Of a DNA stretch of 24,897 nt, positions 2,920 through 18,846 are shown piece after piece. The notes beneath the pieces were generated by a model. It was not told the DNA's origin. It did not search any database and saw only the letters and a list, made by a program, of their open reading frames with translations. Positions within the stretch are counted from its first letter, which is position 1. Each line of letters begins with the position of its first letter. Source of the DNA: a virus (taxonomy: Duplodnaviria; Heunggongvirae; Uroviricota; Caudoviricetes); the IMG/VR virus record IMGVR_UViG_2547132278_000021, positions 1 through 24,897 of that record; one strand, written 5' to 3'. The position numbers were made by a program, and so were the translations under genes.

Positions 2920-3524
2920 CAGGACAACCTCGCAATGGTAAACTCATCAACCGGTGGCTGAGGTTCCTGTGATTCATTCTGGCTATGCGAGCCAGCACTA
3001 AGAATCACGCGATTGTACATATTGAGGGCAAACGTACCGAGGTCTGCATTCCCAGTCAGCGCCATGTTAATGGCTGCCGCAAGACGCCAGGCCAGCGCCT
3101 CCATAAAAATGGCATCAAACATGTTTACATCTGAAACTCGAGAGACATACTTGAGCCATGCCTGCGGCTGGTCTGTGTAGATCAACTTTCCTGTTCCGTT
3201 GGTGTCTGCACCCACTTCGTACTGGACGCGCATTGCTGCTGTTGGATTGCGTACACCAGGAAGCATAATTTCAGTAATGCGCAGACAATCGGACGGATAC
3301 TGGTACGCATATTCCCAGTCAGGCGGTGGATTGTTCGTATCTGCAAGCACCACGCGTTTGGTAGCAAAGTTCCAGTCAAAATCAGAAAGCACAGCATCAC
3401 GGCAGGCCTCAAAGTGCAGTGAACATTCCCCCGCTTCCTTGCTGGCTTCCTTCAGGCTGTTAATGCTGCGGCTATTGCCAATATTGGACAGCGCACGATT
3501 GCAGATCTCTACTACAGAGGCCAT
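2919..3524 (-). CDS. Virion protein (201 aa), candidate tail adaptor/tubular protein A-like by position
   Basis: ORF coupled to both neighbours by overlapping start and stop codons; size and position match the gene preceding the large tail protein in podoviruses. Confidence 0.5.
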   Translation of the reverse strand: MASVVEICNRALSNIGNSRSINSLKEASKEAGECSLHFEACRDAVLSDFDWNFATKRVVLADTNNPPPDWEYAYQYPSDCLRITEIMLPGVRNPTAAMRVQYEVGADTNGTGKLIYTDQPQAWLKYVSRVSDVNMFDAIFMEALAWRLAAAINMALTGNADLGTFALNMYNRVILSAGSHSQNESQEPQPPVDEFTIARLS

Positions 3525-3847
3525 TACTCACCACCATTGCCGTACAGCGTTTCAGCCGCTGATTTTTCTACATCCCCGGAAACAGGAGCGATCGCCATAT
3601 CAGTGATCTGCAGATCGGCGCTGCGATTAACACCATCGTCAGTTTCTCTGGCAGACAGGCCTCGAATAACAGCCTTTGCAGTTATCATCACTTCTGTTCC
3701 GACGCCCTGAGGTTGCGCCTTCAGCTTATTCAATGTGTCGTTATTAAGAGTGATGCACAGCCCCCACGGGTATTCATCGCGAGTTCTGGTTTCTCCGCTC
3801 TCATCCTGGTAGCTGTCAGTGCCGGTTTTGAGGTTTACGAGTTCCAT
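3524..3847 (-). CDS. Hypothetical small virion/head-completion protein (107 aa from ATG 3847)
   Basis: ORF in the structural operon; ATG at 3847 preceded by AGGAG with 5-nt spacing. Track start 3853 is a GTG two codons upstream. Confidence 0.5.
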   Translation of the reverse strand: MELVNLKTGTDSYQDESGETRTRDEYPWGLCITLNNDTLNKLKAQPQGVGTEVMITAKAVIRGLSARETDDGVNRSADLQITDMAIAPVSGDVEKSAAETLYGNGGE

Positions 3848-3897
3848 ATACACTCCTGCAATAAAGGGGCCGAAGCCCCTTGTCTGATTCGCGAGGC

Positions 3898-4233
3898 TTA
3901 CACGCCCAGTTCTTTACGCTTATCTGCGATCTTCTCGCGGAGCGTTTCGGCTTTGGCGTTATGGTGTGGCTTCTCGTTAAAGAGCAATTCGTACTCTTCA
4001 CGGAGCTTATCCAGTTCACCATCATCTGACACATCATTGATGATTTTGGTGCTGGTTGCTGCCATAGACACCTTTCCTGCTACCTTTGCTTTTGCCTGTC
4101 TGGCTGCATCGTTAACAGGTTCCAGTGCGCTACCAGGCTCACCTTCGTATTCGATTTCTGCCCCCTCCGGCCACAGAGTGTTATGGATATGAGAGAGGCG
4201 CAGAACGCGGTATCTTGGTTTCTCACCTGACAT
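3898..4233 (-). CDS. Hypothetical small virion protein (111 aa from ATG 4233)
   Basis: ATG at 4233 preceded by AAGGTGA with 5-nt spacing; track start 4242 is a GTG. Lies between capsid and tail genes. Confidence 0.5.
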   Translation of the reverse strand: MSGEKPRYRVLRLSHIHNTLWPEGAEIEYEGEPGSALEPVNDAARQAKAKVAGKVSMAATSTKIINDVSDDGELDKLREEYELLFNEKPHHNAKAETLREKIADKRKELGV

Positions 4234-6431: not shown

Positions 6432-6728
6432 TCACTCCTGTTCACTGGCCTCTTTGGCCATCTTCAAATACTGTTCAGGGCAATGCGCCATAACGCGCTG
6501 AAACAGTTCCAGCGCCAGATTGCGTTGCCCCTCATTAAATGCCATTGCCATAGCATCCATCGGAGAGATAGCGGAAAACACCCGGCCTTTCTCCAGCACA
6601 GACCAGACAACGCGACGCCCCTGTTCACTGCTCATGACAAAGCGAATGTCATCAATTTCACGCTGTGCCATGTCACGTTGCTTACGGGCGTTTTCTTCTT
6701 TCAGTTGATCGTCCTCGTAATCTGTCAT
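6432..6728 (-). CDS. Hypothetical 98-aa protein between portal and scaffold
   Basis: ATG 6728-6726 overlaps the portal stop (ATGA coupling); charged helical protein. Confidence 0.55.
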   Translation of the reverse strand: MTDYEDDQLKEENARKQRDMAQREIDDIRFVMSSEQGRRVVWSVLEKGRVFSAISPMDAMAMAFNEGQRNLALELFQRVMAHCPEQYLKMAKEASEQE

Positions 6729-8404
6729 TGTGATTGCCCACCCTGACCACTAACTGCATTCGCCATAGCTGACAAAACACTCGGATCCGAAGTTTTAGCT
6801 TCGCTTAGCGTCTTGGCACCCTGTGCCGCCGCCATTCCCATCGCCATCATTTGTTGCTGCTGTTGCTGCTGTGCCCGTTGCTGGCGAGCCTGCTCAACCT
6901 GTTCCTGCGGAACAATGACGGTTGGAGACACTCCGGACATATCAGCGAATGCATCGATCGCCTGATCAACATTGAGTTTGTCGAGAGCTTCTGGTTTCGC
7001 TTGCGCAAGTTGACCAATGAAGTTGACCGTAGACGCCAGACTGGACAGGCCGATAGACTTCTGCGCCTGAGCCATGACGGAAATGTATTCGACCTTCAGG
7101 GGCATACCTTCCATCGCGTCAGGCGGTGGCGGCAGCATGTTTTTACGCACCATCATCGAGAAAGCGCGGTCAATGAGAGGATTAAGACATTCGTCGTTCA
7201 GACGCTCCAGAACCGGCCCCAACATCAGAAGTTTTTCTTCTTTCATTTCGATCACCGCTTCAACAGGCATCGAGCGGGTATTGATGTTCTGCAACATCAT
7301 GAACAGATCGACAAAGTAGGCGCTGTTAATGATTTGACGGGTGTCCTGAATGTCTGCCACCAAATCTGCTGTACTGGGGTTAACCAGATAAGCAGGCCTG
7401 AAACCATCCTGACCAGTAATCTGATCGATATACGTGATGTCGCCAGGAAGAAGGGAGGCACGCTGATTCTTGAGGGAAGTCGGAGCAACCATCGGCGGAT
7501 TGGTGGCTTTATCAATCAACTGCGACTTGCGCTTCTGGAGAAGCTGCAATGCCTTAACAGGTCCAAGCGCCAGCATACCCGGGCATGATGATCCATAAAC
7601 ATCTTCGCCGTTAACTTCCCAGCGCGGAGCCATAATTGGAAACTCATCGAATCCGGACTCGCGCAACAACTTGTCGTTATCGCCACCAACCTCGTAATAA
7701 ACCGATTTGAATGGCTTGTTCTTGCTATCCAGCTTCGATGTATCGCGGTCAATGTTCGGGTAAACCGAATGCATCACTTCAATCCACTTCTCGTAGGTGC
7801 CGCTTTCCCACATGCTTTTTACGGATTCGCTGACGTTATTTAGCCCGAACTCCTGAACAAGCTGACGAACAGTCATAGAGAACTTGCGAAAACAGGTGTC
7901 CACACTGCCACGAGGTGAGTTAGCCAGGTAGTAACTGCCTATCGGGAATGGCATTGTGCGAATGATGTCCTCGTCATCCTCCAGCACTGCCATTGCACCA
8001 GTGCTGTATGTGCCGAGGCTTCCGTATAACTGCGGCAGCGACTGATAGAGATTCGACTTATTGAACATATCGTTCATGCGGTTCTGCACCGCCTCAAGCC
8101 ACAACTTAACAGGGCCATAATCCATCATTTCAGGATCTGGCGTAGCCAGGCGAAACCACGGACGCGCGGGGCTTGTGATGCCTGACATCATGCCGCTGGC
8201 GAGAGTGCGCGCCGCCATAGTCCCGGTCGAATCAATAATGCGTGTATTGCGTCGATCGTTACGGTTGACCTCAGAAGTCAGAAAGCGGGAACCACGTGGG
8301 TTGATGTAATCACTCAACTCGCGCCAGTGCGGCTCGAACGACTGACGCTCGCTTTCAAGTTGTGCGAACTGTTTGTTCAATCGCTCTTTAGTTGTTTCCG
8401 CCAT
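6725..8404 (-). CDS. Portal (head-to-tail connector) protein, podovirus type (559 aa)
   Basis: Size, position after terminase, and a Gln-rich C-terminal tail (QQRAQQQQQQQMMAMGMAAAQGA...) reminiscent of T7-type connectors. Start context CCGGAGTCATTGAA-ATG. Confidence 0.75.
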   Translation of the reverse strand: MAETTKERLNKQFAQLESERQSFEPHWRELSDYINPRGSRFLTSEVNRNDRRNTRIIDSTGTMAARTLASGMMSGITSPARPWFRLATPDPEMMDYGPVKLWLEAVQNRMNDMFNKSNLYQSLPQLYGSLGTYSTGAMAVLEDDEDIIRTMPFPIGSYYLANSPRGSVDTCFRKFSMTVRQLVQEFGLNNVSESVKSMWESGTYEKWIEVMHSVYPNIDRDTSKLDSKNKPFKSVYYEVGGDNDKLLRESGFDEFPIMAPRWEVNGEDVYGSSCPGMLALGPVKALQLLQKRKSQLIDKATNPPMVAPTSLKNQRASLLPGDITYIDQITGQDGFRPAYLVNPSTADLVADIQDTRQIINSAYFVDLFMMLQNINTRSMPVEAVIEMKEEKLLMLGPVLERLNDECLNPLIDRAFSMMVRKNMLPPPPDAMEGMPLKVEYISVMAQAQKSIGLSSLASTVNFIGQLAQAKPEALDKLNVDQAIDAFADMSGVSPTVIVPQEQVEQARQQRAQQQQQQQMMAMGMAAAQGAKTLSEAKTSDPSVLSAMANAVSGQGGQSQ

Positions 8405-8418
8405 TTCAATGACTCCGG

Positions 8419-8625
8419 TTACTGACCAAGCAGCGTTTTACCGCTGGTATTAGCGGTTGATGTGTCGCCCTGAGAACCGGTAAGCAGCGTAGAACTACGA
8501 CCAGCAGCAGCGCGACGGCGACGAGTTTCTTCGTCGCGGGCATCAACAACGGCGGCATCCTGCTCCTGTGGTGCTGCCTGAACTTCTGGTGTTGCAGGCA
8601 CTGATGGTGAGCTACCCATGCACAT
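8419..8625 (-). CDS. Hypothetical 68-aa low-complexity protein upstream of portal
   Basis: ATG at 8625 is preceded by the same initiation block (GGAGTCATTGA-N-ATG) as the portal gene; Ser/Thr/Ala/Gln-rich. The overlapping 79-aa track ORF 8406..8645 starts on TTG and is less likely. Confidence 0.4.
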   Translation of the reverse strand: MCMGSSPSVPATPEVQAAPQEQDAAVVDARDEETRRRRAAAGRSSTLLTGSQGDTSTANTSGKTLLGQ

Positions 8626-8653
8626 ATCAATGACTCCGTACGCAATTAAATTA

Positions 8654-8730
8654 TTACCAATTTAACCACATATGATTTATTTATCGTAGATAGTTGACAT
8701 TTAACGCACAAATTATTACCTTTCAGGTAA
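8654..8730. promoter_or_regulatory. Operator-like site TTACC-TTTCA-GGTAA (8716-8730) with consensus -35 TTGACA (8694-8699) and a degenerate upstream half-site (8654-8668) at the cassette spacing
   Basis: Perfect 15-bp dyad identical in form to the immunity-region operators. Flank AAATTATTACC matches the flank of the pL-like proximal operator. Transcription direction not resolved. Confidence 0.45.
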
Positions 8731-9052
8731 GCAAAGAGTTCATTCCGGTTATTAACCTGACTGGCTTGTCGTTAAATTGAACAGGTGGAGTGAGCTTTTA
8801 TTTTGAGCAGTACGGCGTATGGCACATGCGCCGATAGCGGTCTGGATACGTTTAAGGGGCACCCTCCCTTGCTCGGGCAAACGAACCAGGTAGCCGGAAT
8901 GTGCAAGTCGAGCGGTTTTATTCCGCGCACGGGGATTCACCATCCCGGCGATTTGGTGTGACGCCTCGGAAGAGACGAGGGTACAACGATGAGAGCATTT
9001 ATGGAGCCGCGACAAAGTGTGGCGCCTTAACAGGCTAAGTGCTCTCAGCGTT

Positions 9053-9129
9053 GTGGCATTAGCTCAGTTGGACAGAGCAACCGCCTTCTAAGCGGTTGGT
9101 CGCAGGTTCGAATCCTGCATGCCACGCCA
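9053..9129 (+). tRNA. tRNA-Arg (anticodon TCT, decodes AGA)
   Basis: 77-nt cloverleaf folded by hand: acceptor GTGGCAT/ATGCCAC, D stem GCTC/GAGC, anticodon stem ACCGC/GCGGT with loop CTTCTAA (U33, TCT, A37), T arm GCAGG-TTCGAAT-CCTGC, discriminator G, encoded CCA. Confidence 0.9.
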
Positions 9130-9327: not shown

Positions 9328-9653
9328 ATGAACGACCAGCAAATCGAAAAAGAAATCGTTGAGAAAGGCAAAACCGCTCCGCGAGTTACGCCTCAATATA
9401 TCGAAAGCATCATTCTTGAAGAGCATTTCTTTACTGCTTAGACGGCATTCGTGCTGCCAATATGGGCGTTGGCGATTCATGGACAGCGCATAAATCTACA
9501 GACCTCCTGACTTTCTGCGTATTGGTACTGAAGAATGGCTTCACCGTCACCGGAGAGAGTGCCTGTGCAAGTCCGGAAAATTTTGATGCAGAAATTGGTC
9601 GGAAGATTGCCCGGCAGAATGCTGTAAACAAAATCTGGATGCTTGAAGGTTAA
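9328..9653 (+). pseudogene. Gp49-like small phage protein gene (Phage_gp49_66-type) disrupted by a frameshift
   Basis: ATG 9328 with AGGTGAG Shine-Dalgarno encodes MNDQQIEKEIVEKGKTAPRVTPQYIESIILEEHFFTA then TAG at 9439-9441. The adjacent frame continues from 9441 (DGIRAANMGVGDSW...LKNGFTVTGESACASPENFDAEIGRKIARQNAVNKIWMLEG) to TAA 9651-9653; the two frames join with a 2-nt offset. Confidence 0.5.
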
Positions 9654-9686: not shown

Positions 9687-9700
9687 CGTGACATGTCACA
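9687..9700. repeat. 14-bp element CGTGACATGTCACA (perfect 12-bp palindrome GTGACATGTCAC), copy 1, downstream of terL
   Basis: Identical 14-mer recurs at 11952-11965. Confidence 0.8.
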
Positions 9701-9703
9701 AAC

Positions 9704-9730
9704 AGCCAGCCGATGAGCTGGCTTTGTTTT
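9704..9730 (+). terminator. Intrinsic terminator (possibly bidirectional) between the Gp49-like gene and the terL 3' end
   Basis: Stem AGCCAGC / GCTGGCT with loop CGATGA, followed by TTGTTTT; A-rich on the other side. Confidence 0.55.
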
Positions 9731-9773
9731 ATCCTCACCAGAGGATATCTCCGTCATTATCCCCGCTAACGGA

Positions 9774-11249
9774 TTAAGCATAGGGATCGTAATCTGTAAT
9801 GGCCTTGCCTTGCTGGTTCTGCTGCCCGGGAATTCGCAGGCGCTTTGACACCGGGAAAGCAAACGTCAGCAGTAGCGCATCGCCTTTACCAGGCGAACGC
9901 CCAAGTCGTTCTTTGATATCTTCCTTCGGTTCGATAACGATTTTACCGTCCACGCGAACTTTGTACTCTGCCGCCGACAGGTCGTCTGCAGTTTCCTGGT
10001 CATCCAGCATGCCGCCTAGCCTCAGCCATGTCTTGCATGAGTTGAACATCTCCCCACGCTTGTTGAGCATCTGCGGGTCAGTAGACGCGCCACCGAACGG
10101 AACAAGTTGCCATGTACGACCCCAGCCGTCACCGATTGACTTCAAACCGGTTCCGTAACCGAAGTCGATGAACACCGCGTCAGCCTGATACTGGTCTTCA
10201 AAGTCAGCGATACGCTTCGCCATAATCAGATCGTCGGTAGTCTTGTTGCCAGTCCACAGCACCTTACTGTGCAGCCCCTGCCGCAGGTATATCACAGCGT
10301 CATCAACGCCTGAGTATGCCGGGTCAACGCCGATTATCACCGGAGCATGTGCAACCTGCGCAGCGGTTACCACCCGTTTCATTGCCTCATCAGTAAGACC
10401 GGTAGGGATAAACTGCAATTCAGATGCATCAGGGAATATGCCGCGCACACGGACCTTCACGAAGTCGCTGTCCTCGCCATGGTCTTCAATCCATTTTTGA
10501 ATCTGCTCTTTGTTCGTTCCTTCGACGGTACGGCTGTCGATCTGCTTCGTAACCCAGCGGTGTTTATATTTGCGGAAGCATTCCCTGAAACGCCCGGAGT
10601 TACGCGTAGGGTTTCCGAACGCTACCCAGATGATTTCCGTGTCTTCGTCCGTCAGCGCACCCTCGGCCACCTCCCAAACTTTATCAGCAATGTTTGACGC
10701 CTCATCGAATACCACGATGATCCGCTTACGCTCGTTGTGCAGGCCGGCGAACGCCTCGGTGTTGTGCTCAGACCACGGGATTGCGTCAGCGCGCCAGCGT
10801 TTATCGTGGCCCGGATCATTGCTGTACATGGCTGTTGCTGGGGTAGAGAACCAGTCTTTCGTGATGGACAGGTTTGCCCACTTAATCACTTCAGGCCATG
10901 TCTTGGTACGCAGCTGATTTTCGGTGTTGGCAGTGACTACTGCTTTGCAGTCTTCGCAGGTTGACATACCCCAGTTCAGGAGCATGGAAATACCCGCACT
11001 TTTCCCTATGCCGTGGCCTGAAGAAACGGCAATCATCAGCGGCTGATGACGGGTTTCTGGGTTCCTGAGGTGCTCACCAACCGTATCGAGCATCCATCTT
11101 TGCCAGTTTCTTGGTCCGGATGCATGCGCCAGCTCTGTACCCTCTTCCCCCCACGGGAACGCATAGAGGGCATAGCCAAGCGGATCGTGAGTGAACCCTG
11201 CTATATCCTCGATCAACTGCTCTTCAGGAGATAACGATGTATCTGTCAC
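9774..11249 (-). CDS. terL: Terminase large subunit (491 aa)
   Basis: N-terminus SPEEQLIEDIAGFTHDPLGYALYAFPWGE..., a Walker-A-like GHGIGKSAG and an acidic VVFDEASNI stretch, then a nuclease-sized C-terminal domain. GTG start at 11249 overlaps the terS stop (GTGA). Confidence 0.85.
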   Translation of the reverse strand: MTDTSLSPEEQLIEDIAGFTHDPLGYALYAFPWGEEGTELAHASGPRNWQRWMLDTVGEHLRNPETRHQPLMIAVSSGHGIGKSAGISMLLNWGMSTCEDCKAVVTANTENQLRTKTWPEVIKWANLSITKDWFSTPATAMYSNDPGHDKRWRADAIPWSEHNTEAFAGLHNERKRIIVVFDEASNIADKVWEVAEGALTDEDTEIIWVAFGNPTRNSGRFRECFRKYKHRWVTKQIDSRTVEGTNKEQIQKWIEDHGEDSDFVKVRVRGIFPDASELQFIPTGLTDEAMKRVVTAAQVAHAPVIIGVDPAYSGVDDAVIYLRQGLHSKVLWTGNKTTDDLIMAKRIADFEDQYQADAVFIDFGYGTGLKSIGDGWGRTWQLVPFGGASTDPQMLNKRGEMFNSCKTWLRLGGMLDDQETADDLSAAEYKVRVDGKIVIEPKEDIKERLGRSPGKGDALLLTFAFPVSKRLRIPGQQNQQGKAITDYDPYA

Positions 11250-11839
11250 TGATTACCATCCTGACGTTCTTTGAGTCGCTTCCTGGCTGCTGCTATGCGA
11301 TCAGCAATTGTCACATTCACATTAACATCCAGACGTTCTTTGAACGCGTTGACATCAACATGCTTACCAATCAGCTCAAGGTTCTTCACCTTGTCAGGCC
11401 ATTTAATTTTTTTGAGGATTGTCTCTATCGAATCCTCGTTCATGTTCATGATGGTCGATGACAGATCAAAGCCACTAAGCGTAGTGCGCCAGATTTTCGG
11501 CCACTCACGGATTGGTTTAAGGCTCCCATCGTCGTTGAGGATGTCGATCACGTCCATCTGGTCGATCTCCACCAGGCGCATGAGAACGTAATCAGCACTG
11601 ACGCGCATTCGTTTGTTGCGCTCCTCCATCAACTCGGCAATCCGTTTTTGAATGCGTTCATCGCGCATCATGACACTGGCTTTAACTGCCGCTGTATTTG
11701 GAGAGAATCCTGCGTTAATCGCTGCCTGAGTCTGGTTTTCAGGCGTTTTGATGTATGACTGGCAATAAGCCTCCTGCATTGCTGTTAGTGGCTTAAATTG
11801 CGTTGATTTGCGTTTATAGGTTTTAGGTTCAGCAGGCAT
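11246..11839 (-). CDS. terS: Terminase small subunit (Terminase_2-like), ~197 aa from the internal ATG
   Basis: Region LTAMQEAYCQSYIKTPENQTQAAINAGFSPNTAAVKASVMMRDERIQKRI has the Terminase_2 HTH pattern. Track start 11920 would place a terminator hairpin inside the coding sequence; ATG 11839 is preceded by GGTGG. Confidence 0.75.
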   Translation of the reverse strand: MPAEPKTYKRKSTQFKPLTAMQEAYCQSYIKTPENQTQAAINAGFSPNTAAVKASVMMRDERIQKRIAELMEERNKRMRVSADYVLMRLVEIDQMDVIDILNDDGSLKPIREWPKIWRTTLSGFDLSSTIMNMNEDSIETILKKIKWPDKVKNLELIGKHVDVNAFKERLDVNVNVTIADRIAAARKRLKERQDGNQ

Positions 11840-11884
11840 CATAACCACCGTGGTAATAGTTACCGTTGTGGTAATAGTACCATG

Positions 11885-11911
11885 CAAAATAAAGCCGCCA
11901 TAGTTGGCGGC
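11885..11911 (-). terminator. Intrinsic terminator hairpin upstream of terS
   Basis: Minus-strand GCCGCCA-ACTA-TGGCGGC followed by TTTATTTTG. Confidence 0.5.
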
Positions 11912-11951
11912 AGTATTCAAAACCCATCAAATTCATCATGCATAATCTACT

Positions 11952-11965
11952 CGTGACATGTCACA
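11952..11965. repeat. 14-bp element CGTGACATGTCACA, copy 2, overlapping the stop of the Cys-rich gene
   Basis: Identical to 9687-9700. Confidence 0.8.
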
Positions 11966-12299
11966 CTATTAATTTCGTTTCATGCCAGCCTTTAGTCACC
12001 CAGCATTGCGAGTCACCATTACACGGGCATGAATTAACTGGAACTCTCTCGCCGCACTTACCGCAACATTTTCTGCTGATCGATTTTATACGCCCGCGCA
12101 CGCGTGCATCATCCTGGCGGATCAGTAACGCTATATACTCACCAAATTCGTAAGGCGCACGCCCGGGGCGACGCGTGGCACAGTTACGCTCCAGCATTTC
12201 AATTTCCTGAGCATCAAGCACAATTTCCAGCTTACGCACACCAGATGCAGCTTGTCTGGCTCTCTGAGCGGCTTTGCGCTCTGCTGCTGATTTAGCCAT
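11961..12299 (-). CDS. Hypothetical Cys-rich protein (112 aa) with basic Arg/Ala-rich N-terminus
   Basis: ATG at 12299. N-terminus [24 protein letters not shown]-terminus [22 protein letters not shown] suggests metal binding. Sits immediately upstream of the palindrome, terminator and terminase genes. Confidence 0.5.
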
Positions 12300-12633
12300 T
12301 CTGATTTTCCTGCATCATGAGAAATACAATCATGGCGGCGCGGAGAGGTCTGGTATCAAATATTGGTCTTACGCCTTTTGCATCAACACACCATTCAGTT
12401 AACTGGTCTAAGATAGAAATCCTGTGTTTCTCAATAATCGGCCATGAGGCGCTAGGATCATTGCAGTAGTCAGGTAAATGGTTTAATGGCTCAAAAGTTG
12501 TATCAGTATTTCCGTAATACCATTTGTTGGTGTTATTCCCTGATGTTTCCGGTTTACATGCCCAAAGGCCTTTAAAAATTATGTCTCCTACCATTCTGTT
12601 AATTTCAAAATCACTTAACTGTGAATAGTCCAT
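12292..12633 (-). CDS. NinX-like (DUF2591-type) phage protein, 113 aa
   Basis: ATG 12633 overlaps the upstream TGA (ATGA) and follows AGGAGGTG. Family assignment from memory of the [13 protein letters not shown]-terminus; tentative. Confidence 0.5.
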
Positions 12634-13547
12634 CACTTCACCTCCTGCGGCGGTTCTGGTAGAGGCATCCAGTGGGTTACACCGCCAATTGGCTCATCGT
12701 CGTCGTACTCCAATGCGGCTATATAGAACCCGTCACGACGAGAATAAGAAATCCCGGACATTACAATGCCATCCGAAACAACAATAATGTCACCCGTTTC
12801 TTTCGGCATTCGCTCACTACAGCTTATCCAGGCATCCAGAGTTACCGGAACTTGTGGAATGGCTGTCTGCTCTCGAACGTCATTAGGCGCTATAGGTTCT
12901 GCTGCCAACTGACTGGCATATTTGTTAATGGTAACGATAAGCTCTTGCTCAGCCTCATCCAGACAATCACCGATACCTCGCCTGTCACCGTCAAAATCAT
13001 CGAAATCGGCACGAATCCTGGCAACCTTCAGGATTGCGGACAACACCTCACTAGGAATTGCCGGATAGTTGGTTGACGTTTCCGCGATTTCCCGAAAATT
13101 ATTGGTTGACGAATTCTTATTTTCCCGAAAGTTTCCGGACTGAAGCATGGCGGCGCGGCAGGCGTTCCAGCCAGCTGTTCGCCCAAGCGCGTAAACTTCA
13201 GATGGCTCAAGATAATCAATGTCATGCCCGTCCTCATCGTCGTTCTCAGGTAATGCAGCAGGTACTACCGGTACTGGCGGAGCGGCGTAGACTTCAATAA
13301 TCCCATTATCAATAGGCCATTCTCCATCCTTGAGATAGTCACTTGTGCCGTCAACTTGCTGTTCAGCAATGTGGAATGCACCAACTGGCTCTGCTGCCAG
13401 CGATGCCAATGCGATTTCCAAAACAGCAATATCCATTTTATATGTGCGGATGATGTCATGGTCGATTGTGCCTGGTATGCACAGTCTCTGTGCTTCAATA
13501 GTCTCCTCTGCGTGAGTTATTAACTGCTCTCTGGTAAAAGTGGTCAT
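12633..13547 (-). CDS. Hypothetical phage protein (304 aa) with C-terminal DUF551-like motif
   Basis: Ends ...[17 protein letters not shown], characteristic of DUF551 C-termini. Strong AAGGAG Shine-Dalgarno 6 nt before ATG 13547. Confidence 0.6.
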
Positions 13548-15594: not shown

Positions 15595-15597
15595 GAT

Positions 15598-15674
15598 TTA
15601 CCTCTAAGGTAATTAAAAACCACATAAGACACGAAATCAATAGATCTAAGAATATTTTGTTACCTATCAGGTAA
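15598..15674 (-). promoter_or_regulatory. Internal promoter-operator cassette: operators TTACC-TCTAA-GGTAA (15598-15612) and GTTACC-TATCA-GGTAAC (15659-15675) flanking -10 TTTAAT (15612-15617) and -35 TTGATT (15635-15640)
   Basis: Two perfect dyads 62 bp apart centre to centre, the same spacing and layout as the pL-like cassette; 17-bp spacer between the hexamers. Confidence 0.6.
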
Positions 15675-15686
15675 CTATTGAGGCGT

Positions 15687-15711: not shown

Positions 15712-16512
15712 TTACTTGATAAATCCTGCCGCCTTTCCCCGCCTGTATTCCTCCATCAGCCACTGCGCCGGTGTTATTCCCCCAAGGGTGGCGGCGTTAG
15801 GCATGCACCCGAAACTTCGCCCTGGTGGATGGTAAACGTCTCTCCCTGTGTCCGGAGGTGTACTCATGGGCTCTGGCTTTGCCTGTATGCTGATCACCGG
15901 ATCGGGTATCTGCTGTCCGGAAGCCACCTTTTTCGCCCAATCATCGAGCAGCCTGCGCGCGTGTTTCTCAACCTCAATCTCGCTAAGCTGGCGCTGATAC
16001 ATTGCACGGCGGGTATCACATACGACCCAGTACATAACCGGATGTCGCCACGGGAATCTTTCGGGACCACCAGGATATAAACTTTTTTCCTTGCTGTACC
16101 GGTGAAACTCCGCCATCACATCGTCAATGGTGACGCCAAGAACCATCTTGCTGTCTTTGCACCACTTGATAAATTGCCCTGGCGACGGCCAGAACGGAGA
16201 TTCACTGGCGCGGGCGTGGCGCATACCAGCAGAAACCTGTTCACGGGTTCGGATCCCCCCTTCGGCAAACGCAGCAATCCACTGCTGTTTTGCAGCAACT
16301 TCCTGCTCTGGCGTCTTCAGGTTGGTTACCACTGCCGCCGGAAACAGTTGTTTCAACTGTTTGAAAAGGGCATCAACAAGCCTCTCTGCTGACATGTTCA
16401 CCACATTGTCATTGTTGACGTACTGATGCTCATAACCTGACATGCGAGAAAGGGCTTCTCCGTCACGGTTTTGTATCGCGGTAAAAACGTTGTTCACAAG
16501 AAATCCTCCCAC
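15712..16512 (-). CDS. Lambda P-like replication protein (helicase loader), 266 aa; start codon uncertain
   Basis: QWIAAFAEGGIRTREQVSAGMRHARASESPFWPSPGQFIKWCK parallels the lambda P core (QWVLAFRENGITTMEQVNAGMRVARRQNRPFLPSPGQFVAWCR, recalled from memory). Track start is a GTG overlapping the O-like gene 3' end. Confidence 0.8.
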   Translation of the reverse strand: MGGFLVNNVFTAIQNRDGEALSRMSGYEHQYVNNDNVVNMSAERLVDALFKQLKQLFPAAVVTNLKTPEQEVAAKQQWIAAFAEGGIRTREQVSAGMRHARASESPFWPSPGQFIKWCKDSKMVLGVTIDDVMAEFHRYSKEKSLYPGGPERFPWRHPVMYWVVCDTRRAMYQRQLSEIEVEKHARRLLDDWAKKVASGQQIPDPVISIQAKPEPMSTPPDTGRDVYHPPGRSFGCMPNAATLGGITPAQWLMEEYRRGKAAGFIK

Positions 16513-17357
16513 GCTTCAGGGCTGTTCCAGTGCGGAACGTTGTTATCAGGTAATGTTGATTGCTTCTGTCTGCTAATCTGCAGCCGCCTTGCCAGCTTCT
16601 GCTCCCACTGTGCCTGATGGTATGCCTTACCCTCAGCCATCCAGTAAATTCTGAACTCTGCAAGTTCCTGTGCCGTTGGCAGACTGTCCAGGTAGATTCC
16701 CTGCAATGAGCTTTTCCGAAGAAAGTCATCTGATGGCTGCCATTGTTCATGCATGACAAATTTGCCTAATTGCCCTGGCCCACCAGGAGGAACAAAGTTA
16801 TTCATCACGGCGTTGTTTGCGCCGGGGTCATGAGGCACAGAATCCCCGGTTTTTGTCCTGCTCTCCCTCTCTTGGTTAAATGACTGGTTATATGACTGGT
16901 TCTGGATCCCGTTTTTGGGATCATTCAACATCCCGTTTTTGGGATCATTCAACATCCCGTTTTTGGGATCATTCAACATCCCGTTTTTGGGATCATTCAA
17001 CATCCCGTTTTTGGGTATATTCCCGTTTTCGGGAACATTACCGTTTTCGGGTTCATTACCCCCTTCCCGGTTGCCTTTAATGTTCCCTTTTTTGGTTATA
17101 TTAAGAGAGAAAACCCGTACTCTTTTCGTCGCCCCCTTTCTCTCTCCGGTATCTGAAATAAGCCCCATTTTCATGAGCGATATAAGCCCGGCCTGCACGG
17201 TTTTTTTATTCAGGCAAGTGTCTTTAACGAGGCGTTCTATGCTGGGGTAGCAGAGGTTATATTCATCGGCTCTGTCAGCCATCGAGAGCAGTATGAGCTT
17301 TAATGACGAGCTACCTGGATCTGTCTCCCAGGCCCAATCTGTTGCATGTCTGCTCAT
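16494..17357 (-). CDS. Lambda O-like replication initiator (287 aa) with internal origin repeats
   Basis: N-terminal winged-helix-like region (LKLILLSMADRADEYNLCYPSIERLVKDTCLNKKTVQAGLISL), central PKNGMLND repeats encoded by the iterons, and a C-terminal domain. GGAGA Shine-Dalgarno before ATG 17357. Confidence 0.8.
   Translation of the reverse strand: MSRHATDWAWETDPGSSSLKLILLSMADRADEYNLCYPSIERLVKDTCLNKKTVQAGLISLMKMGLISDTGERKGATKRVRVFSLNITKKGNIKGNREGGNEPENGNVPENGNIPKNGMLNDPKNGMLNDPKNGMLNDPKNGMLNDPKNGIQNQSYNQSFNQERESRTKTGDSVPHDPGANNAVMNNFVPPGGPGQLGKFVMHEQWQPSDDFLRKSSLQGIYLDSLPTAQELAEFRIYWMAEGKAYHQAQWEQKLARRLQISRQKQSTLPDNNVPHWNSPEAWEDFL
16906..17001. repeat. Candidate replication origin iterons: four perfect 24-bp direct repeats (ATCCCGTTTTTGGGATCATTCAAC), with degenerate copies to ~17060
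   Basis: Seen directly in sequence. Each unit carries an ATCCC...GGGAT dyad. Location inside the initiator gene mirrors lambda ori. Confidence 0.75.
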
Positions 17358-17990: not shown

Positions 17991-18053
17991 TCACCCATAA
18001 GGTAACAAAAATCAAGGATAGTTACCTATGAGGTGCATTTACCTGTTGGGTAA
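17991..18053. promoter_or_regulatory. Immunity-region operator cluster (OR-like): TCACC-CATAA-GGTAA (17991-18005), TTACC-TATGA-GGTGC (18022-18036), TTACC-TGTTG-GGTAA (18039-18053)
   Basis: Three dyads in the 154-bp divergent intergenic region between the cro-like and repressor genes. Candidate cro promoter hexamers TTGTTA/TATTAT overlap the first site. Confidence 0.65.
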
Positions 18054-18108
18054 TATTGCTTTAAATTGAATCATCTACTGATTCATATATGAGGCGATTT
18101 TCCAGAAA

Positions 18109-18739: not shown

Positions 18740-18750
18740 TGCCGAAAAGA

Positions 18751-18827
18751 TTACCTTGCAGGTAATTTTTTTAACTCATATCTATTGACATCAAACCAGA
18801 TACGCATAATTATTACCCCAACGGTAA
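18751..18827 (+). promoter_or_regulatory. pL-like promoter-operator cassette: operators TTACC-TTGCA-GGTAA (18751-18765) and TTACC-CCAAC-GGTAA (18813-18827) flanking -35 TTGACA (18785-18790) and -10 AATTAT (18808-18813)
   Basis: Consensus -35, 17-bp spacer; the proximal operator begins at the last base of the -10; operator centres 62 bp apart. Confidence 0.65.
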
Positions 18828-18846
18828 CAAGCCGAGGTAACAAGTT

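Follow-up and report, generated by a model that had tools for sequence, protein, structure and literature searches.

The DNA analysed here, a stretch of 24,897 nucleotides (nt) from the IMG/VR virus record IMGVR_UViG_2547132278_000021 (the window in what follows), is an epsilon15/phiV10-like (Uetakevirus) prophage whose genes lie mostly on the - strand. It contains a 14-mer, CGTGACATGTCACA, in exact copies at 9687-9700 (PAL2) and 11952-11965 (PAL1) on the + strand, with no third exact copy in the window, and the core of the 14-mer, GTGACATGTCAC, is a perfect 12-bp palindrome. We give even chances to the reading that this 14-mer is an instance of a conserved protein-binding site, the operator of the protein encoded by the adjoining gene g55, which acts as a boundary or roadblock at the ends of transcription units. 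The initial annotation had noticed the two palindromic copies, and both their number and their coordinates were confirmed in the window sequence. It had described them as bracketing the terminase genes, one just past the stop of the large-subunit gene terL and the other just upstream of the small-subunit gene terS, and here the picture is different: PAL2 and the terL stop (9774) are separated by 74 nt that include an intrinsic terminator (9704-9723), while PAL1 covers the g55 stop codon, with the early-right terminator (11894-11911) 40 nt downstream and the probable terS ATG (11842) 109 nt downstream. The features concerned are as follows.

11952-11965, no strand assigned: PAL1, copy of the palindrome (core 11953-11964), read as TGTGACATGTCACG on the - strand and including the TGA stop of g55 (11961-11963)
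9687-9700, no strand assigned: PAL2, copy of the palindrome, 3 nt from the bidirectional terminator after terL
11961-12299, - strand: g55, gene of 112 amino acids (aa), of the epsilon15 gp49 / PhiV10p55 / N15 gp46 family (PHROG 536)
11894-11911, - strand: intrinsic terminator (GCCGCCAACTATGGCGGC plus a T-run) upstream of terS, which closes the early-right operon
11246-11842, - strand: terS, small terminase subunit (Pfam Terminase_2, E = 1.4e-29)
9774-11249, - strand: terL, large terminase subunit (PHROG 2, 'terminase large subunit'; annotated as terL in phiV10, epsilon15 and ZX5)
9704-9723, + strand: bidirectional intrinsic terminator hairpin between the convergent terL and gp49/66 genes, abutting PAL2

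Comparative conservation is the decisive evidence that the palindromes are real. In a comparison set of 121 loci with TerL relatives, drawn from genomes and IMG/VR, PAL1 and PAL2 are conserved base for base in dozens of relatives despite differing flanks. No base of PAL1 is changed at the 3' end of g55 in Rahnella, Buttiauxella and an Advenella metagenome-assembled genome, although the g55 proteins there share only 53-64% aa identity; one Pantoea and one Erwinia dacicola locus differ in having the site ~200-290 nt downstream of g55. PAL2 is likewise unchanged in relatives from E. coli, Klebsiella, Citrobacter, Erwinia and Scandinavium, where it lies at +31 or +78 nt relative to the terL stop, always after the terminator hairpin and followed at once by the stop codon of some unrelated gene on the reverse strand. 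The stop codon used by the convergent gp49/66 gene of relatives would, in the window, be 4 nt before PAL2. Among complete genomes, epsilon15 and SPN1S have three exact copies each, and SPN1S has a further copy, with one mismatch, where its lysis cassette ends. In phiV10 two copies are exact and the one on the g55 stop has a single mismatch. Klebsiella phage BUCT711 lacks a copy after terL but has one on the g55 stop, another where the structural operon ends, and two more inside genes. The number of sites in these four genomes is thus 2-4, and the intergenic positions that they share are the g55 stop, the region after the terL terminator, and a point 1-10 nt past the last structural gene, directly before its terminator. 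The last of these was seen again in nine IMG/VR contigs. The three copies are about 2.2 and 17 kb apart in the genome, and a bracket around the terminase genes was perceived because the window ends before the third copy. The copies are placed at the ends of transcription units (early operon, terS-terL and structural operon) and most likely are not specific to the terminase genes. The start of the phiV10 GenBank record within the palindrome was also considered as a possible mapped end and rejected, since the record was by convention opened after the stop codon of the last gene.

The statistics within the window point in the same direction in part. A repeated 14-mer of any kind is unremarkable alone, with about 1.6 per window in Markov simulations, while a perfect 12-bp palindrome present twice was obtained in 4 of 300. 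With up to two mismatches allowed, the 14-mer has 5 matches in the window against 0.27 expected, a number reached in none of 100 shuffles; these correspond to three distinct sites, because both exact copies match again on the opposite strand. The site can be generalised as YGTGAC-NN-GTCACR with a strict 2-nt spacer. In eight g55-encoding genomes or parts of genomes (~287 kb), GTGAC-N2-GTCAC occurs at 21 sites against ~0.27 expected; only one site has any other spacing from N0 to N8, and two have the reversed arrangement. No site is found in 234 kb of TerL relatives without g55. Among 204 distinct sites, 194 have the Y and R flanks. A chance origin of the pair was rejected on the comparative conservation and these spacing statistics. 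The initial annotation had asked whether the 14-mer is common throughout related genomes without positional bias; on the contrary, the site is rare and strongly positioned. No paper containing the 12-mer was found in literature searches.

Moreover, the site accompanies g55 homologues of no more than 32-40% identity in otherwise different phages, among them P2-like, N15-like and Vibrio phages. In N15, gp46 is 35% identical to g55 and CGTGAC-TG-GTCACG overlaps its stop codon; two more sites are present, one of them placed after the final gene of the repA operon but ahead of the operon's terminator. In the P0196 clade, which has a lambda-type terminase, the homologue is also 35% identical, TGTGAC-AG-GTCACA lies over its stop codon, and a second site follows 100 nt further, just before the lysis genes. 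The P2-like phages (homologue 38% identical) have exactly one site in 34 of 37 loci, where 0.012 per locus would be expected, and it belongs to an array that lies between the portal-gene terminator and a cos-like segment, with a right flank that is again variable; Yersinia phage 42.18 likewise has a g55 homologue and exactly one site in 36.5 kb. The Vibrio phages K308 and PhiPS02, with homologues of 31-32% identity, have three sites each, one of which is 19-20 nt upstream of the terS ATG. In all, the site overlaps the stop codon of the g55 homologue in three lineages. The palindromic form of the site and its co-occurrence with the gene make it quite probable that g55 binds the palindrome. Among the ideas first put forward for the pair (a module-exchange junction, a shared regulator-binding site or a packaging-related signal), the shared regulator-binding site is the best supported, with g55 as the candidate regulator.

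The g55 protein belongs to PHROG 536, labelled 'transcriptional regulator', has no Pfam or NCBIfam assignment, and comes from a small family (152 clusters at 50% identity). No functional study of epsilon15 gp49 or N15 gp46 was found in literature searches. An AlphaFold model built from a diverse alignment reached a pLDDT of 92; an earlier one from 20 close homologues only was unusable (pLDDT 56). In the model, a basic N-terminal helix is followed by an extended segment, two helices and a Cys-rich module at the C-terminus with the invariant residues C79 and C82. Its best matches are ribbon-helix-helix (RHH) folds and it has the beta-alpha-alpha arrangement of these; g55 is confidently predicted to be an RHH protein with a Cys-rich tail, and this C-terminal domain probably binds zinc. 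The curated RHH sequence families gave sub-threshold matches only (RHH_5, E = 0.013 in 1 of 34 members; RepB-RCR_reg, E = 0.028 in 2 of 34), and a fold search of BFVD returned only a fragment of the same protein. A telomere-phage proteome was considered as evidence for expression of g55 in lysogens and set aside, since the 'gp46' of the NAR688 lysogens is the cB repressor and not the homologue of N15 gp46.

In several respects g55 would resemble the known RHH repressors (Arc, Mnt, CopG and MetJ, and the type II antitoxins TacA, KacA and ParD): it is small, its model fits these folds best, the short perfect palindrome suits a symmetric dimer, and the site adjoins the gene of the regulator itself. 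Unlike in these systems, however, the g55 sites are at operon 3' ends and on the stop codon of the regulator, not in its promoter, and the protein has the additional Cys-rich domain and basic N-terminal helix, with no Pfam RHH model reaching threshold. The pair of g55 and palindrome would then be an RHH protein with its palindromic operator, unusual in the placement of the operator, in the breadth of its sharing and in its coincidence with cargo junctions.

According to the favoured reading, a g55 dimer would occupy each palindrome, and the sites lie at the 3' boundaries of consecutive units, namely the early operon (on the g55 stop), terS-terL and the structural operon (outside the window), each adjoining an intrinsic terminator and slots of cargo-gene exchange. 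Bound g55 would halt RNA polymerase and so reinforce the terminators, and the lytic operons would be insulated from one another and from the convergent cargo units. The copy over the g55 stop codon would in addition limit g55 synthesis, as Lac repressor does at O3, and each site would double as a crossover point for cargo exchange, because it is a short island of identity between unrelated flanks. The roadblock or insulator effect is proposed tentatively, with somewhat less confidence than an even chance would express. It is favoured firstly because RHH proteins are mostly repressors. Secondly, sites are located 5-20 nt upstream of the start codons of K308 terS, N15 gp47 and a small open reading frame (ORF) of Uetakevirus variants, which leaves no room for a downstream promoter and makes blocking the only possibility. 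Thirdly, blocking is preferred over activation because N15 and the P2-like phages already carry late regulators. The LacI-O3 roadblock is a known case of a regulator whose operator is at the 3' end of its own gene, where the bound protein can block its own transcript (PMC3711431). The differences are that LacI is of another protein family, that further g55 sites exist at other operon ends, and that the g55 roadblock is inferred.

The roadblock is further favoured because terS appears to have a repressor-controlled promoter of its own. The relevant feature is the following.

11841-11875, no strand assigned: two CI-type operators (ATTACC-N5-GGTAAT class) directly upstream of the terS ATG

These operators are preceded by a conserved extended -10-like motif, TGnTAsTAT, read from the sequences of relatives, and the combination suggests that terS has its own repressor-controlled promoter. 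The direct repeat upstream of terS had been considered as a part of the palindrome element, which was rejected, since it is this pair of operators. The epsilon15 annotation gives the operator motif as a 'repressor' site in front of terS, gp3 and gp20, and again within the immunity region. Operators of this type are located in the window at 8715-8731, 11841-11875, 15597-15675, 18038-18054 and 18750-18828, that is, in the immunity region and upstream of terS and of the gp3-portal operon. This suggests that the late operons are under direct repressor control, matching the sites of epsilon15. The start of terS used here, ATG at 11842, is probable, in place of the TTG at 11920 of the mechanical ORF list, and the product of 198 aa has the length of that of epsilon15. 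As for the terminators, the hairpin homologous to 9704-9723 is annotated as a terminator in phiV10, and the homologue of 11894-11911 as rho-independent in epsilon15.

Several observations weigh against this roadblock reading. The distance from palindrome to terminator ranges from 1 to about 120 nt, so there is no fixed geometry between the two. An Aeromonas phage with a homologue of 31% identity has no such site in 48 kb, and one N15 site and two BUCT711 sites are inside coding regions. The co-occurrence of site and g55 could also reflect another co-inherited protein or a host protein. Finally, in three lineages g55 is the last early gene and is followed directly by lysis or packaging genes, a position that would suit a Q-like late switch just as well.

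If g55 does bind, it would represent a class of regulator acting at operon ends and not at promoters, with a near-invariant 12-bp site in at least four unrelated lineages of temperate phages. Such binding would help to explain how the lytic operons of epsilon15-like phages are kept transcriptionally separate from the interspersed cargo, would explain why cargo is always exchanged at the same nucleotide positions, and would provide a function for a widespread 'hypothetical' family, PHROG 536 (N15 gp46, epsilon15 gp49). In practice, the ends of transcription units and the cargo slots of these prophages can be recognised by this compact motif. We further propose, as a wider and rather doubtful extension, that g55 and the palindrome form a previously undescribed module that spreads horizontally in Enterobacterales and Vibrio between temperate phages of several kinds (podoviruses, myoviruses, siphoviruses and linear-plasmid prophages), in which an RHH/zinc protein on matS-like 12-bp palindromes at the 3' ends of units would set transcription across the boundaries, limit its own synthesis from the site on its stop codon, define the cargo slots and perhaps cross-talk with the MatP/matS system of the host.

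The main rival, which we consider unlikely, is a late-gene switch: g55 would be a Q-like activator or antiterminator that, bound to the palindrome, recruits or modifies RNA polymerase and thereby lets it pass the terminators into the terminase, structural and lysis genes. The arrangement is like that of lambda Q (QBE-pR'-tR'), with the regulator as the last early gene, the site just downstream, then a terminator and then the late genes. Thus g55 is directly upstream of terS in the Uetakeviruses and of the lysis cassette in K308, the order in one locus (L251) is g55, two palindromes, a GH108 endolysin and then a gpA-type terminase, and both PAL1 and the third copy (PAL3) precede intrinsic terminators. 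In addition, the sole promoter-like match on the - strand between 8300 and 12700 has the GTGACA of PAL1 as its -35 (9/12; GTGACA, 18 nt, CATGAT, with the -10 within a remnant ORF described below) and is followed by the terminator 11911-11894, as in pR'-tR', and the Uetakeviruses are without any other annotated late regulator. However, this promoter-like match around PAL1 is not conserved among relatives, and PAL2 comes after the terL terminator with respect to late transcription. Unlike the lambda site, the g55 sites are also at later operon ends, and N15 and the P2-like phages keep g55 and its site despite having Q-like or Ogr-like regulators. The late operons have CI-type operators and the extended -10-like motif of their own, and g55 shows no similarity to the Q families of Pfam and NCBIfam, that is, no homology to Q.

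A quite improbable explanation is that the palindrome is an accessory site that aids terminase assembly at pac or cos, with g55 bending or bridging the DNA there. One copy is always near the packaging start: it is upstream of terS in the Uetakeviruses, the copy close to terS in K308 and PhiPS02 is beside an HNH gene, and the array of the P2-like phages contains ~2.5 sites at roughly 33-bp spacing, ~170-230 bp from the cos-like GC-rich segment. The Uetakeviruses, however, hold three identical copies far apart from one another, N15 has no site near cos, and cargo of 0.2-1.9 kb is found between PAL1 and terS in relatives. The packaging signal proposed at first is therefore unsupported in this phage group, and what speaks for it is the copy near terS or cos in other lineages.

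The possibility that the palindrome mimics a chromosomal site, through matS half-sites or a likeness to the SlmA site, and recruits or titrates a host nucleoid protein, with g55 as a mere syntenic neighbour, is very unlikely. The half-sites are identical to those of matS, bound by MatP, the organiser of the E. coli Ter macrodomain, and this identity makes a possible link to chromosome-organising proteins directly testable. The spacer of the phage sites, however, is 2 nt in 21 of 22 cases and that of matS is 3 nt, so the palindrome is not a matS site; furthermore, a host factor explains neither the site on the stop codon of the g55 homologue in three lineages nor its absence from g55-less relatives in the same hosts. 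It is known that the CRP consensus is TGTGA-N6-TCACA; with a spacer of 4 nt, not 6, in TGTGACATGTCAC(A/G), the palindrome was rejected as a CRP site. The published matS consensus is GTGACRNYGTCAC, 13 bp with a 3-nt spacer (PMC6907758). As for MatP itself, g55 lacks its four-helix bundle and was rejected as a homologue (PF06303 / PF17414): hhalign of the g55 alignment gave a probability of 0.15% against E. coli MatP, and no MatP Pfam model matches in the 34 members. A search for relatives of MatP yielded only near-identical proteins, of no use for a profile. A SlmA site was rejected too, since the SlmA-binding sequence GTGAGTACTCAC requires G, T, A and G at positions 1, 2, 4 and 5, mutation of position 5 impairing binding (PMC3020112), and the palindrome, despite its resemblance, has C at this critical position and A at position 6. 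Besides their sites with the 2-nt spacer, K308 and PhiPS02 carry one perfect matS-type site each (GTGACACCGTCAC, 3-nt spacer) beside a terminator-like hairpin (L294 6769-6781; L297 14562-14574).

The idea that the pair marks a module-exchange junction holds with respect to position and not with respect to what is exchanged. When the 40-nt flanks of each copy were clustered, PAL1 had one dominant left-flank family against 14 unrelated right-flank families. PAL2 remained exact across two left-flank and ten right-flank families; its dominant left family (L0) is joined to at least six unrelated right families, and right families are common to several left families. Both copies are hence nucleotide-sharp mosaic junctions, and each is a repeated short motif bordering exchangeable segments, as a 'linker' is. 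The swapped unit is the cargo adjoining each palindrome, not the terminase cassette between them; within this cassette, recombination is visible too, with terS 99% but terL only 92% identical to the same relatives. The distance from PAL1 to terS varies from 715 to about 1,900 nt in relatives because differing cargo, such as a ~70-aa ORF, LexA-box umuD-like genes and others, is inserted after PAL1. Boundary motifs are known from other mosaic phage genomes, for example the lambdoid 'linker' sequences and the promoter-stem-loop (PeSL) cassettes of T4-type phages. As in these, a short repeated motif is found exactly at the junctions where variable genes are exchanged; unlike in these, it is a 12-14 bp palindrome of protein-binding type with a candidate protein and no promoter cassette, and it is common to unrelated phage families.

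A passive micro-homology linker for recombination, or a small RNA hairpin in the 3' untranslated region, either of them without a dedicated DNA-binding protein, is the least probable explanation: it would agree with the mosaic junctions at PAL1 and PAL2 and with the fact that every copy is near a terminator and no more than ~10 nt from a last stop codon, but the same 10 specified bases and their spacing persist across lineages without shared flanking homology, which argues for sequence-specific recognition and not for drift-tolerant homology. The RNA hairpin was rejected, as it is marginal (-2.9 kcal/mol, z = -0.1), variant copies carry one-sided changes that are not compensatory, and PAL2 is beyond the terL terminator; an Rfam search of the window found no match at the palindrome, only the tRNA.

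Some further observations concern the cargo. Just downstream of the g55 palindrome, four loci (L008, L012, L047 and L048) have a cargo gene whose own promoter (TTGACT/TATACT) overlaps a LexA box (TACTGT-N8-ACAGTA); by these motifs it is a predicted SOS-regulated insert at the junction. The gene that follows is umuD-like in L008 and L048, and apparently in L005 as well. In the window itself, an 8-codon ORF, ATGCATGATGAATTTGATGGGTTTTGA, at 11917-11943 (- strand) is the deletion remnant of the ~70-aa ORF of relatives that have a 186-bp longer spacer. Between terL and the portal operon there is a reverse-oriented insert with a tRNA-Arg (9053-9129) and a disrupted Phage_gp49_66 gene. The latter homologue (9329-9653, + strand) is broken by an in-frame TAG (9438-9440) and ends early with a TAA (9651-9653), the frame of relatives continuing to 9683; it is probably a pseudogene in the window and is intact in E. 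coli R18 and phiV10. In TerL of L014, L024 and L028 (locus ~3037-4001), an in-frame insertion of ~320 aa with a LAGLIDADG-like motif follows the Walker A motif (GHGIGK) and is probably an intein.

Two features remain to be listed, of which the second is a variant of the palindrome.

12292-12636, - strand: NinX
6664-6677, - strand: near-copy CGTGACATGGCACA with one mismatch, within a Bbp19-like gene (6432-6728, - strand), of uncertain status

The near-copy is kept in the phiV10-like clade and absent from epsilon15 and SPN1S, and it may be a coincidence or a functional weak site. P2-like phages from Yersinia and IMG/VR have this very variant as the upstream member of their palindrome array (L291 11675-11686). 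Elsewhere in the window, five tandem 24-bp iterons (ATCCCGTTTTTGGGATCATTCAAC) at 16882-17025, within a DnaT-like/O-like replication gene (16494-17357, - strand), are probably the phage origin. In addition, near-identical 16-mers, CATTTCAATGACTCCG and CATATCAATGACTCCG, are located on the - strand at 8402-8417 and 8623-8638, where they span the ribosome-binding site and start codon of the portal gene and of its small upstream neighbour; the two genes share a translation-initiation region.

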